Assembly (NCBI RefSeq): GCF_000317695.1
Contig: NC_019771.1
Span: 2,463,823 to 2,527,822 of the forward strand
Source: Anabaena cylindrica PCC 7122
Lineage (GTDB): Bacteria > Cyanobacteriota > Cyanobacteriia > Cyanobacteriales > Nostocaceae
Length of the DNA: 64,000 nucleotides
Direction: 5' to 3'
Position numbers and translations under genes: made by a program. Of this stretch, positions 7,526-9,266 are shown in pieces. The notes beneath the pieces are model-generated. The model made no database searches and was not told the origin of the DNA. It saw nothing but the letters and a program-made list of their open reading frames with translations. Numbering within the stretch: position 1 is the first letter of the stretch; each line of letters starts with the position of its first letter.

Positions 7526-7623
7526 GCAGCGTCACCTAACGGTAAGGTACTCGGCTCATAACCGGGAGTATGTGGGTATCTCCTTCGGAGACGCTACGCG
7601 AACAACTCCCACCGCTGCGACCA
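7526..7623 (+). tRNA. aberrant tRNA-like (anticodon CAU) with ~24-nt insertion in T-loop
   Basis: Acceptor GCAGCG.../...CGCTGC followed by G-A-CCA. Anticodon stem-loop CTCGG-CTCATAA-CCGGG. The T-stem GTGGG/CCCAC encloses TATCTCCTTCGGAGACGCTACGCGAACAACT. Confidence 0.35.
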
Positions 7624-7626
7624 AAT

Positions 7627-7697
7627 GCACAGATGGTGTAACGGAAGCATAAGGGTCTCCAAAACCTTTGGTCATGGTTCAAATCCTTGTCTGTGCG
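7627..7697 (+). tRNA. tRNA-Trp(CCA)
   Basis: Acceptor GCACAGA/TCTGTGC. Anticodon stem-loop AGGGT-CTCCAAA-ACCTT. T-arm CATGG-TTCAAAT-CCTTG. Confidence 0.6.
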
Positions 7698-7702
7698 TTG
7701 AT

Positions 7703-7779
7703 GGTGCAGAAGCGAAGTGGCCGAGCGGCACGTCTTTCAAGCGTGTAATTAGCGGGTTCAAGTCCCGTCTGCACTACCA
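7703..7779 (+). tRNA. tRNA-Glu(UUC)-like, CCA encoded
   Basis: Acceptor GGTGCAG/CTGCACT followed by A and CCA. Anticodon stem-loop CACGT-CTTTCAA-GCGTG. T-arm GCGGG-TTCAAGT-CCCGT. Confidence 0.5.
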
Positions 7780-7786
7780 AATTTAT

Positions 7787-7868
7787 GGGTCGGCTCGCCT
7801 ATTGGTGTAGGTAACGGTCTGTAAAACCGCCGCGTTCAGTGTTGCTGGTTCAATTCCAGCCCGACCCA
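7787..7868 (+). tRNA. tRNA-Tyr(GUA)-like (long variable arm)
   Basis: Acceptor GGGTCGG/CCGACCC. Anticodon loop CTGTAAA. T-arm GCTGG-TTCAATT-CCAGC. Confidence 0.5.
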
Positions 7869-7872
7869 CTAT

Positions 7873-7960
7873 GGAGAGATTGCCATTGGCAGGGCAAGCT
7901 GTTTGCTAAACAGTCGTGAAATTCAACATTTCACTGTGGGTTCGACTCCCTCTCTCTCCG
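7873..7960 (+). tRNA. tRNA-Ser(GCU) (class II)
   Basis: Acceptor GGAGAGA/TCTCTCC. Anticodon stem-loop GCTGT-TTGCTAA-ACAGT. Long variable arm CGTGAAATTCAACATTTCACTG. T-loop TTCGACT. Confidence 0.6.
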
Positions 7961-7966
7961 CCTTAT

Positions 7967-8040
7967 CCCCTGGTAGCTCAGTTGGTAGTAGCGCCTGTTT
8001 GAAGAACAGGAGGTCATCCGTTCAATCCGGATCTGGGGGA
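7967..8040 (+). tRNA. tRNA-Phe(GAA)
   Basis: D-arm TAGCTCAGTTGGTAGTAGC. Anticodon stem-loop CCTGT-TTGAAGA-ACAGG. T-arm ATCCG-TTCAATC-CGGAT. Confidence 0.6.
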
Positions 8041-8049
8041 CTGGCACAT

Positions 8050-8124
8050 TGCCCCATAGCTCAATGGCAGAGCAAGGCGCTGTTAACGCCGGGGTTGTAG
8101 GTTCAAATCCTACTGGGGCAGCCA
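8050..8124 (+). tRNA. tRNA-Asn(GUU), CCA encoded
   Basis: Acceptor TGCCCCA/TGGGGCA followed by G and CCA. D-arm TAGCTCAATGGCAGAGCA. Anticodon loop CTGTTAA. T-arm GTAGG-TTCAAAT-CCTAC. Confidence 0.7.
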
Positions 8125-8264
8125 TTTATTGGGAAGTAGGCAAAGTCACATTGCCCTGAACGATAGGCTTGCAGGTTCGACCCCTGCTTCGGCATCTAAT
8201 TGTCTTTAGGCATCGAACTGGCAAACATAGTTTTTTTTATGTCACCATAAAAGCTAAAAAAACT

Positions 8265-9041
8265 ATGAGATATCGAAGTGTTCTGTCAAATAAAACCAAA
8301 GTAGAGGAAGCTGTGAAGCGTTGTTCTTCAGTCAGAGAATGCCTACATTTTTTGGGGCTACGTTCGGCTGGTGGCAACTACAAACAGTTTTACTGCTGGT
8401 GTGAGAAGCACGGTATTATTCCACCTAAAGGAAAAAATATTAATGGACTGAATAACGCCTCTAAACAAGCTCAAATTCCGTTAGAAAAAATTTTAATTTT
8501 AGGCTCTTCTTACAACAGAAATAGTTTGAAATCTAGGTTAATTCAAGAATCATTATTAGAGGAAAGATGCTATGAATGTGGGATATTGTCTAAATGGAAT
8601 GAAAAACCTCTTTGTTTGCAATTAGACCATATTAATGGCATAGCTAATGATAATCGAATAGAAAATCTACGTCTTTTATGTCCTAACTGCCACAGTCAAA
8701 CGCTAACTTTTGCAGGTAAACGAAAACCTTACTCTCGGATTGTCTTTTATTCTTGTTCCAACTGTTATGCTTCAATAACTAAATCTTCTAAGCTAGGGCT
8801 TTGTAAAAGATGTGCATCTTTAAGGTCAAACTTAAAAAGAAGGAAAGTCGAACGTCCTTCTAAAGAAGAATTGCACGAGTTGCTGTGGTCGAAGCCAACA
8901 AGTTTAGTAGCTAAAGAATTAGGAGTAAGCGATAAGGCAATAGAAAAATGGTGTAAATCTTATGGCATTCCAAAACCACCAAGAGGATATTGGAATAAAC
9001 AAAATCAATTACAAGGTTTGATAGTAAATCAAACCTTGTAA
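8265..9041 (+). CDS. HNH endonuclease
   Basis: HNH motif CYECGILSKWNEKPLCLQLDHINGIANDNRIENLRLLCPNCHSQT. The ORF-track start at 8169 would read through a tRNA-like remnant. The start was moved to the first Met after it, MRYRSV. Confidence 0.75.
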   Translation: MRYRSVLSNKTKVEEAVKRCSSVRECLHFLGLRSAGGNYKQFYCWCEKHGIIPPKGKNINGLNNASKQAQIPLEKILILGSSYNRNSLKSRLIQESLLEERCYECGILSKWNEKPLCLQLDHINGIANDNRIENLRLLCPNCHSQTLTFAGKRKPYSRIVFYSCSNCYASITKSSKLGLCKRCASLRSNLKRRKVERPSKEELHELLWSKPTSLVAKELGVSDKAIEKWCKSYGIPKPPRGYWNKQNQLQGLIVNQTL

Positions 9042-9048
9042 CGCTGAT

Positions 9049-9122
9049 TGAGAAGTCGTCTAATAGGTATGGCACCGCTCTTTGAAAGCGGAAAAATGCA
9101 GGTTCAAGCCCTGCCTTCTCAG
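9049..9122 (+). tRNA. tRNA-Gln(UUG)
   Basis: Acceptor TGAGAAG/CTTCTCA with 7 of 7 pairs. Anticodon stem-loop CCGCT-CTTTGAA-AGCGG. T-arm GCAGG-TTCAAGC-CCTGC. It starts 8 nt after the HNH stop. Confidence 0.55.
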
Positions 9123-9167
9123 TTATGTTCTCTGAAGTTTGTAATAACTTAAAGAACAATTAATTTT

Positions 9168-9266
9168 GCTCCTGTAGCCCAACTGGAAGAGGCGGCTGTC
9201 TCAAAAACAGTCTGTGTACGGGTACTGCTCCGCAGAAGCAAGCTACAACTCCCGTCAGGAGTACCA
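9168..9266 (+). tRNA. aberrant tRNA-like (anticodon CAA) with insertion in T-loop, CCA encoded
   Basis: Acceptor GCTCCTG/CAGGAGT followed by A and CCA. Anticodon stem-loop GCTGT-CTCAAAA-ACAGT. The T-stem ACGGG/CCCGT encloses a ~30-nt loop ending CAACT. Confidence 0.35.

Follow-up and report, generated by a model that had tools for sequence, protein, structure and literature searches.

The DNA considered here is a stretch of 64,000 nt from Anabaena cylindrica PCC 7122 (contig NC_019771.1, positions 2,463,823 to 2,527,822), which we call the window and number from its first letter. On its plus strand, at 7283-9861, it carries a long tRNA gene array of the trn operon or L-array type, with about 20 tRNA genes or pseudogenes identified by ARAGORN, Rfam, homology and synteny. 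Two members of this array are the subject of the present analysis: gene A (7525-7623, anticodon CAU) and gene B (9168-9266, tRNA-Leu, anticodon CAA). Both are on the plus strand and have an encoded CCA end, and both contain a small hairpin-bearing sequence inside the T-loop, which measures 31 nt in gene A and 28 nt in gene B.

Under permissive filters, both genes match the Rfam tRNA model RF00005: gene A over 7525-7620 with 39.5 bits (E 1e-7), and gene B over 9168-9263 with 34.8 bits (E 3e-6). These scores are above the gathering score of the model (29 bits), and all 71 model positions are covered in each gene. The sole anomaly is a local insertion in the T-loop, of 30 nt in A and 27 nt in B as against 6 in the model. 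The acceptor, D and anticodon arms and the 5-bp T-stem are all kept, and ACCA is encoded in the DNA at both 3' ends. The first-pass annotation had described two tRNA-like genes with a hairpin insert in the T-loop, otherwise canonical acceptor, D and anticodon arms, and anticodons CAU and CAA. The Rfam alignments confirm all of this, at the places given, except that gene A starts at 7525 rather than 7526, its acceptor stem beginning there with a U1-G72 pair; its end at 7623 is correct.

The layout of the T-arm is the same in both genes. In gene A the T-stem strand GTGGG (7572-7576) is followed by T54 (7577), the insert (7578-7602), CAACT (7603-7607) and CCCAC (7608-7612), all on the plus strand. 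Insert A, ATCTCCTTCGGAGACGCTACGCGAA, is 25 nt long and consists of the hairpin TCTCC-TTC-GGAGA and a tail, CGC-TAC-GCG-AA. In gene B, on the same strand, the order is ACGGG (9218-9222), T (9223), the insert (9224-9245), CAACT (9246-9250) and CCCGT (9251-9255); insert B, ACTGCTCCGCAGAAGCAAGCTA, is 22 nt long, with the hairpin CTGC-TCC-GCAG and the tail AAGCAAGCTA. Gene A thus reads GGGT[ATCTCCTTCGGAGACGCTACGCGAA]CAACTCCC and gene B reads GGGT[ACTGCTCCGCAGAAGCAAGCTA]CAACTCCC. In neither is there a canonical 7-nt T-loop with U54-U55-C56: T54 and C56 to T60 are intact in both, and the insert stands in place of T55. The first-pass annotation had also pointed to the CAACT kept beside the insert; it is indeed present in both genes, but as the native T-loop positions 56-60 and not as part of the insert.

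Neither gene is reported by ARAGORN or by an Rfam scan with default filters; only the permissive scan found them. When the insert is replaced in silico by a single T, ARAGORN calls a 75-nt tRNA-Met(cat) for gene A and a 78-nt tRNA-Leu(caa) for gene B. Minimum-free-energy folding is uninformative by itself (z = -1.6 and -0.6), and for gene A it favours a non-cloverleaf pairing that lies 2.3 kcal/mol below the cloverleaf with the insert hairpins. An alternative fold with a normal T-loop, which the first-pass annotation had named as grounds for its refutation, was sought, and no T-arm of 5 bp and 7 nt exists beside the acceptor strand, the best register giving two of five pairs. A reading of the two genes as tRNAs with a long variable arm was tried as well, and no such fold exists. 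A second mini-hairpin in insert B (AGC-AA-GCT) was ruled out as sterically impossible in RNA; a description of the inserts as two hairpins is true of A-type tails (CGC-TAC-GCG) and not of B.

By blastn, the array has homologues on 18 cyanobacterial plasmids, one of which is NC_003273. Its relatives are plasmid arrays of Nostocales (loci L001-L014), among them that of the delta plasmid, pCC7120delta, of Nostoc/Anabaena PCC 7120; gene order is shared, and gene-by-gene orthologues are found, with the PCC 7120 array and its relatives. Genes A and B were compared by BLAST with 14 related arrays, and the orthologous tRNAs have ordinary GGGTTCAAnTCCC T-arms. The orthologues of gene A in L002, L005, L006, L007, L011 and L014 have a normal T-loop, the T-arm of the CAU gene reading ...ACGGGTTCAACTCCCGT... 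in L002, L006 and L011. Similarly, the T-arm of the Leu-CAA gene reads ...GGGTTCAA(A/C)TCCC... in seven orthologues (L001, L003, L004, L006, L009, L013 and L014). Not every orthologue is in such good order: that of gene A in L004 is itself an inserted allele with a decayed anticodon arm, and that of gene B in L002 has the same insert B together with a 6-nt anticodon loop. Insert B is thus found in two T-stem backgrounds, ACGGG/CCCGT in the window and GTGGG/CCCAC in L002.

Fifteen arrays were scanned twice, once for seven tail motifs on both strands and once, structurally, for long T-loops. As the first-pass annotation had proposed, this search of other arrays recovered the same hairpin: insert B occurs in identical form in tRNA genes of L002, L005 and L013, the last two cases being T-loops of tRNA-Ser. 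In total, 24 tRNA genes have an insert between T54 and C56, all in the plus orientation. The inserted genes are found in nine of the 15 arrays, the other six having none, and they represent at least ten isoacceptors (two kinds of Met/CAU, Leu-CAA, Glu-TTC, Ser, Gly-TCC, Tyr, Val-TAC, Lys-TTT and Arg-TCT among them). The T-loop inserts comprise at least five tail families and six hairpin variants. Two T-loops (tRNA-Tyr at L005:2686-2743, and L011 at about 4250-4300) hold nested double inserts, in which one element lies in the hairpin loop of another. Outside T-loops the 15 arrays contain about five copies, all inverted or palindromic, including an inverted A-type copy in the anticodon loop of tRNA-Phe in L002, an allele that recurs in a Leptolyngbyaceae metagenome-assembled genome (MAG; L048). 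It is worth adding that at L007:5382-5418 the anticodon loop is replaced by a perfect 37-nt palindrome of two inverted copies, TTCGCGTAGAGTCTCCCTTCGGGAGACTCTACGCGAA. We found no description in the accessible literature of insertions at T54/C56 in cyanobacterial tRNA arrays.

The insert sequences are not confined to tRNA genes. A 31-nt query around insert A matched 57 plasmid records at 72 places, mostly in Nostocales. The 25-nt A core, TCTCCTTCGGAGACGCTACGCGAAC, occurs with 100% identity at non-tRNA sites, both intergenic and genic, on plasmids of Nostoc, Chroococcidiopsis, Brasilonema and others; examples are sites downstream of czcA, at the 3' end of a Chroococcidiopsis cation-efflux gene and inside a four-helix-bundle gene. 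In an exact scan of one genome per species, the 16-mer GGAGACGCTACGCGAA was found at 120 genome loci or more, nearly all of them in cyanobacteria. Among the loci listed these are chiefly Nostocales, with Leptolyngbyaceae, Moorena, Okeania, Trichodesmium and Pleurocapsa also represented, plus a handful of chance matches elsewhere. No T-loop-inserted tRNA was seen at these listed loci, which hold just 14 tRNA genes and so give no test of housekeeping against array genes. Relatives of insert B, GTAC(T/C)CCTRCGGRGAAGCAAGCTAC, are dispersed at non-tRNA sites too. Within the 64-kb window a search for the insert cores returned almost nothing, the dispersal being visible only in the plasmid and genome collections; the window does hold a third B-type copy, outside any tRNA, at 62491-62512 on the minus strand (T[ACCGCAACGGGCAAGCAAGCTA]C), which forms inverted repeat I18 with 9223-9247. 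We conclude that the inserts are DNA-level copies of tiny hairpin-bearing dispersed repeats. In a Tolypothrix contig (L022:1146-1246) a 17-nt tail unit, CGGAGACGCTACGCGAA, is repeated in tandem at least six times beside a tandem run of TTCTCC, and therefore the halves of the element can also amplify as tandem arrays.

The dispersal bears directly on the possibility of an RNA-level intervening sequence, that is, a protein-dependent bacterial T-loop intron whose removal would give a working tRNA. In all 24 genes the insert has exactly the same position and boundaries, T54 and C56-U60 are never lost, and most of the inserted genes are otherwise intact, all of which such an intron would explain. 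It also fits that rtcB has the same operator repeats as the trn operon and is induced in the same way (PMC8421152). Against it, the same sequences lie in intergenic DNA, in coding regions, in tandem repeats and, inverted, in an anticodon loop, and their distribution is therefore set at the DNA level. In addition, the insert families at one site differ among arrays, some inserted alleles are decayed, and if nothing but the insert were excised, the loop would have 6 nt and lack U55. We know of no bacterial tRNA splicing endonuclease. Non-canonical tRNA introns of archaea and eukaryotes, which include introns at T-loop positions, are of the bulge-helix-bulge type, whose splice sites form two 3-nt bulges on either side of a 4-bp helix. 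They share with the inserts a short intervening sequence in the tRNA T-arm, and differ from them in that the inserts are in a bacterial host, belong to a genome-wide repeat and show no sign of splicing. The inserts have no bulge-helix-bulge motif: the 5' junction falls in the 2-nt linker between T-stem and hairpin, and the 3' junction in unpaired tail 11-16 nt past the hairpin. We therefore regard a T-loop intron as very unlikely. The group I introns of cyanobacterial tRNA-Leu(UAA) and tRNA-fMet likewise break a cyanobacterial tRNA gene with a mobile sequence; these are self-splicing ribozymes of more than 200 nt in the anticodon loop, and a group I intron was rejected for the inserts, which are of 22-25 nt, in the T-loop, and have no Rfam intron match.

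The ends of the element were examined in those dispersed A-type copies whose CTCC arm is intact, 89 in all. The base 3' of ...GCGAA is C in 84 of these 89, a T, or T plus A/T, lies directly 5' of the A-type elements, and no target duplication is found at the copies inspected. A 3-bp stem abuts T[..]C, where the brackets stand for the element, in 26 of 88 distinct copies, compared with 1-11 at six control offsets. The two flanks often complement each other. In some contexts, CCC-T[..]C-GGG or CTCTC-T[..]C-GAGAG, the target is the TTC(G) hairpin loop of another copy, so that the insertion is nested; in another, GGAGT-T[..]C-GGAGT, it lies inside tandem heptamer repeats. The hairpin stems covary among copies (CTCC/GGAG, CTGC/GCAG, CTC/GAG, CCC/GGG, TCC/GGA and GCC/GGC), and since they vary yet stay complementary, the hairpin matters to the element. 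The simplest rule that describes these sites is insertion at a TTC triplet, favoured where the triplet opens a loop that a G+C-rich stem closes. The DNA of a tRNA T-arm (GGG-TTCRAnT-CCC) is exactly such a target, hence the same nucleotide and the same orientation across many tRNA genes. The single inverted copy in the tRNA-Phe anticodon loop follows from the same rule, because the opposite strand there reads TCTTCAG.

The T-loop is thus a hot spot, a natural landing pad for these elements. T-loops supply about 24% of all TTC sites of the arrays but received at least 17 of the roughly 22 distinct insertion events (binomial P about 3e-7), a number that is approximate since the events were tallied by eye. 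As an alternative to independent insertions, one or a few ancestral inserted alleles may have spread among arrays and tRNA genes by recombination or gene conversion between similar T-arms, with no real preference of the insertion process for the T-loop. This explanation draws on the mosaic, horizontally transferred nature of L-arrays (PMC8421152), on the identical insert B in the T-stem backgrounds of the window and L002, and on tRNA-Glu alleles in which hairpin and tail modules are mixed. It does not sit easily with the variety described above, namely at least five tail families and six hairpin variants in at least ten isoacceptors, nor with the nested second insertions, nor with the same stem-flanked T[..]C context at unrelated genomic sites, and we consider it unlikely.

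Recurrence at one position in many isoacceptors might also suggest a functional remodelling, in which the enlarged T-loop is selected because the resulting tRNA-like RNA has a new role, for example as a regulator or as a decoy of toxins, nucleases or modification enzymes. Genes A and B both retain their acceptor, D and anticodon arms, and in the stress response to which the array belongs the operonic tRNAs are cleaved, the authors of that study having left non-canonical roles open (PMC8421152). The first-pass annotation had offered something similar, "deliberately inactivated decoy tRNAs". However, six of the 15 arrays have no inserted gene and the isoacceptors that are hit vary from array to array; the insert sequences are genome-wide, selfish-looking repeats; there is no insert-specific conservation beyond what the dispersed copies share; and the recurrence is explained by the TTC-in-loop rule, which is valid outside tRNAs too. 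The decoy proposal, in particular, has no support: the inserted alleles are sporadic among arrays, differ in insert family at the same site and are in some cases further damaged. Remodelling for function therefore seems to us quite improbable. The other suggestion of that annotation, a "novel small intervening element", holds in part: it is a small intervening element, but neither its novelty nor an intron-like nature is supported, as it is a copy of a dispersed repeat that is present or absent at orthologous sites.

The explanation that we prefer, with a probability of about 0.8, is that genes A and B are accessory tRNA genes of the array, each of which has been hit by a 22-25 nt dispersed repeat that replaced T55. 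The insert-free orthologues, the dispersed insert families and the regular site and orientation are all directly observed. In mechanistic terms, a hairpin-bearing repeat of 22-25 nt would insert into the DNA at T54-T55-C56 with replacement of T55. Such elements would spread through the genomes of filamentous cyanobacteria without target duplication, landing at T[..]C and by preference at a TTC in the 5' part of a loop that a G+C-rich stem closes, the hairpin loops of earlier copies included. What we infer is the enzyme and mechanism of insertion, the loss of tRNA function and co-transcription with the array.

The predicted product is a tRNA with a T-loop of 28-31 nt and no U55. This nucleotide, normally a pseudouridine, makes the U-turn of the T-loop and a pair with G18; RNase P, the ribosome and several synthetases rely on the elbow that the D-loop and T-loop build together. 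From established tRNA structure, the insert should disrupt the elbow even though T54, C56 and A58 are kept, and a tRNA from an inserted gene would most likely be impaired or dead. Such damage would be tolerated because the tRNAs of the array are duplicates of housekeeping ones and the array stays silent under normal conditions. When 20 inserted genes were examined, 16 proved otherwise intact, ARAGORN calling a normal tRNA once the insert is replaced by T; beyond the cases in L004 and L002, two more can no longer be recognised. Recent or repeated insertions into dispensable genes, with slow decay afterwards, would leave a picture of this kind. Genes A and B are probably crippled yet recently intact members of a redundant, stress-induced array, and inserted tRNAs may retain some residual function.

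Inserts A and B resemble, going by description, the small dispersed repeats (SDRs) of Nostocaceae, which are the closest known kind of element. Reportedly, in Elhai et al. 2008 (Genome Res 18:1484), SDRs insert into tandem heptamer repeats and into each other. Three papers treat SDRs as mobile-looking, precisely inserted sequences of 21-27 nt in Nostocaceae (PMC4390886, PMC5861425, PMC3116915); one of them has SDR5 inserting inside the HIP1 (highly iterated palindrome 1) sequence (PMC4390886). The inserts are like SDRs in size (22 and 25 nt against 21-27 nt), in hairpin content, in high copy number mainly in filamentous cyanobacteria, and in precise insertion into short specific sites without target duplication. 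Unit size, dispersed copies, presence or absence at orthologous sites, precise junctions, nesting and insertion into heptamer repeats are all features of the inserts as they are of SDRs. The A core is unlike SDRs in its range, in that PMC5861425 gives SDRs as found only in Nostocaceae, whereas the A core is also present in Chroococcidiopsis, Leptolyngbyaceae, Moorena and Pleurocapsa MAGs.

A second comparison is with the repetitive extragenic palindromic (REP) sequences tagged with GTAG, which are cut by REP-associated tyrosine transposases (RAYTs), tyrosine/HUH transposases of the IS200/IS605 type, and of which families have been reported in Anabaena and Nostoc (PMC3733652, PMC3116915). Like the inserts, GTAG REPs are short stem-loops with an unpaired tag, depend on the hairpin and make no target duplication. 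Read on the opposite strand, the inserts have the form GTAG, spacer and hairpin in several families, for example G|TAGCTTGCTT-CTGC-GGA-GCAG and GCGTAGCG-TCTCC-GAA-GGAGA. In the commonest tail families GTAG appears as its reverse complement, CTAC, at 2-7 nt from the hairpin, and it is absent from others such as AGGCTTCGCCAA and ACGCTTGCGCGAA. In contrast to GTAG REPs, the inserts are single units inside genes and not extragenic doublets. None of the 38 open reading frames (ORFs) of the window that were scanned against Pfam is a Y1/HUH (RAYT) transposase, and one could lie elsewhere in the genome. We take the connection to GTAG REPs and RAYTs as a lead only.

Several points weigh against our preferred explanation. 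Neither a transposition event nor an insertion enzyme has been observed, and the likeness to SDRs is one of description. The 5' junction varies, the position of T55 being A in all of the T-loop cases and T in most dispersed copies. The excess of T-loop inserts could partly come from selection, if inserts are better tolerated there, and recombination spreading inserted alleles between arrays could contribute to it. Finally, continued function would also predict the high proportion of otherwise intact inserted genes, and a compensatory change in the anticodon stem of the inserted tRNA-Glu of L005.

While the kind of element is already known, the residue of interest is the recurrent T-loop target, precise to a single nucleotide. 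For annotation, the consequence is that standard tRNA finders drop such genes and the gaps pass for spacers; ARAGORN and Rfam with default filters miss them, and tRNA arrays of filamentous cyanobacteria are therefore under-counted. To our knowledge, the way in which elements of 21-27 nt move has been an open question since their first description. Here the insertion point is one nucleotide, T55, in a universally conserved and structurally defined hairpin, which offers a handle on the insertion mechanism, and a compact model of the target (a TTC in the 5' part of a loop that a G+C stem closes) is obeyed in at least ten isoacceptors and in the nested and inverted cases. For tRNA biology, the arrays provide a natural series of tRNAs that have 22-25 nt instead of U55 but retain T54, C56 and A58, well suited to asking how far RNase P, CCA handling, modification enzymes and synthetases tolerate disruption of the T-loop. 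A bolder proposal is that the mobilising machinery recognises a T-arm-like hairpin, a G+C stem with a TTC loop, which would make tRNA T-arms the cognate target of the elements and not a chance one, and that the long-T-loop tRNAs are expressed along with the stress-induced array and then repaired as RNA (cut and religated, for example by the co-regulated RtcB) or used in altered form. We would call this a long shot. If true, these would be the first protein-dependent T-loop intervening sequences in bacteria and the first defined substrate for working out the transposition of elements below 30 nt.

The setting of the two genes can now be described. The promoter region of the array (7155-7208, plus strand) has four direct repeats, TGTAGTA(T/A), around TTGACA/TATAAA. 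The operator motif of the PCC 7120 trn operon, TGTWNWWNWNNWGTANYNWA (PMC8421152), has one match in the 64 kb, at 7189-7208, the chance expectation being 0.17; the match lies within the run of repeats, 75 nt upstream of the first tRNA. Further upstream is an HNH endonuclease gene (6541-7077, plus strand; Pfam HNH/HNH_5), and the same gene is found upstream of the arrays in L001, L003-L005, L007-L010 and L012. The operator repeats, the upstream HNH gene and the homology together place genes A and B in a bona fide trn-type array, with which they are presumably co-transcribed. A second HNH-type ORF (8265-9041, plus strand), with weak Pfam matches to HNH and HNH_3, lies inside the array between genes A and B, adjoined by a tRNA fragment at 8125-8200. 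Homing endonuclease genes linked to or embedded in L-arrays have been described (PMC8421152).

The trn operon of PCC 7120 is silent in normal growth and is induced by translation inhibitors through direct repeats that share nucleotides with the -10 box; under induction 23 of its 26 tRNAs were detected and charged, and the tRNAs of the array are redundant and, except under translational stress, silent (PMC8421152). The present array is like the known trn operon and L-arrays (PMC8421152; PMC10272220; PMC4758250) in gene order, operator repeats and upstream HNH gene, in encoding CCA, and in mixing functional genes with pseudogenes. It differs from the experimentally studied PCC 7120 array in that the latter has no T-loop-inserted gene, and the published expression and charging data are therefore silent on such genes.

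Other tRNA genes of the array are also irregular. At 9784-9861, the anticodon loop of tRNA-Thr(TGT) is 8 nt long (CGATGTTT), and the arms on either side of it consist of HIP1-like GCGATCG sequences; ARAGORN gives the gene a 4-base anticodon, 'atgt', Rfam gives 52 bits, and the orthologues in L001, L002 and L014 have a normal CCT-TGT-AAG loop. The gene is a candidate for either a damaged copy or a quadruplet-decoding tRNA. Rfam alone detects the defective gene at 9445-9519 (31 bits), whose T-arm has decayed to TGCTCTTTCAAATCCTGTC; its orthologues in L001 and L009 have the same defect. A transposon with 165-nt inverted repeats (9868-10032 and 13498-13662, 97% complementary) follows the last tRNA gene directly, and its ends hold internal repeats of 19-29 nt (AACCAGGATTAAATGCAAC). 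Its cargo is a resolvase (10281-10850), a 553-aa ORF and an AAA ATPase (12443-13132), and it is about 85% identical to elements on plasmids of Tolypothrix, Microchaete and Calothrix. Elsewhere in the window, at 33191-33341 on the minus strand, tRNA-Lys(TTT) and tRNA-Ile(TAT) form an adjacent pair (Rfam 64-69 bits), 85% alike over 60 nt; a tRNA-Ile with anticodon UAU is uncommon in bacteria.

The array appears to lie within a very large DNA element that interrupts nifD and covers the window from position 1 to about 41485. The C-terminal end of NifD sets in abruptly near 41485; after it come nifK (41838-43388; TIGR01286, 889 bits), nifE, nifN, nifX and a DUF269 gene, up to 48161. Just upstream of the NifD end, on the minus strand at 39946-41250, is a 434-aa ORF with no Pfam or NCBIfam match, whose C-terminus is tyrosine recombinase-like (LRHGWAIRA...GHS...Y), and which is therefore XisA-like. 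The cargo of this putative nifD element, of at least 41 kb, includes a CyRepA1 plasmid replication gene (2668-5775), the tRNA array, the transposon, and collagen-like and RusA genes. A tRNA array of plasmid type in a developmentally excised nifD element would merit separate study. The collagen-like gene is an 847-aa ORF (22119-24662, minus strand) with collagen-like triplet repeats and with tandem DNA repeats of 42 and 54 nt (23371-24134); it lies near the RusA gene and a Uma2-family nuclease gene, and is phage-like or mobile cargo.

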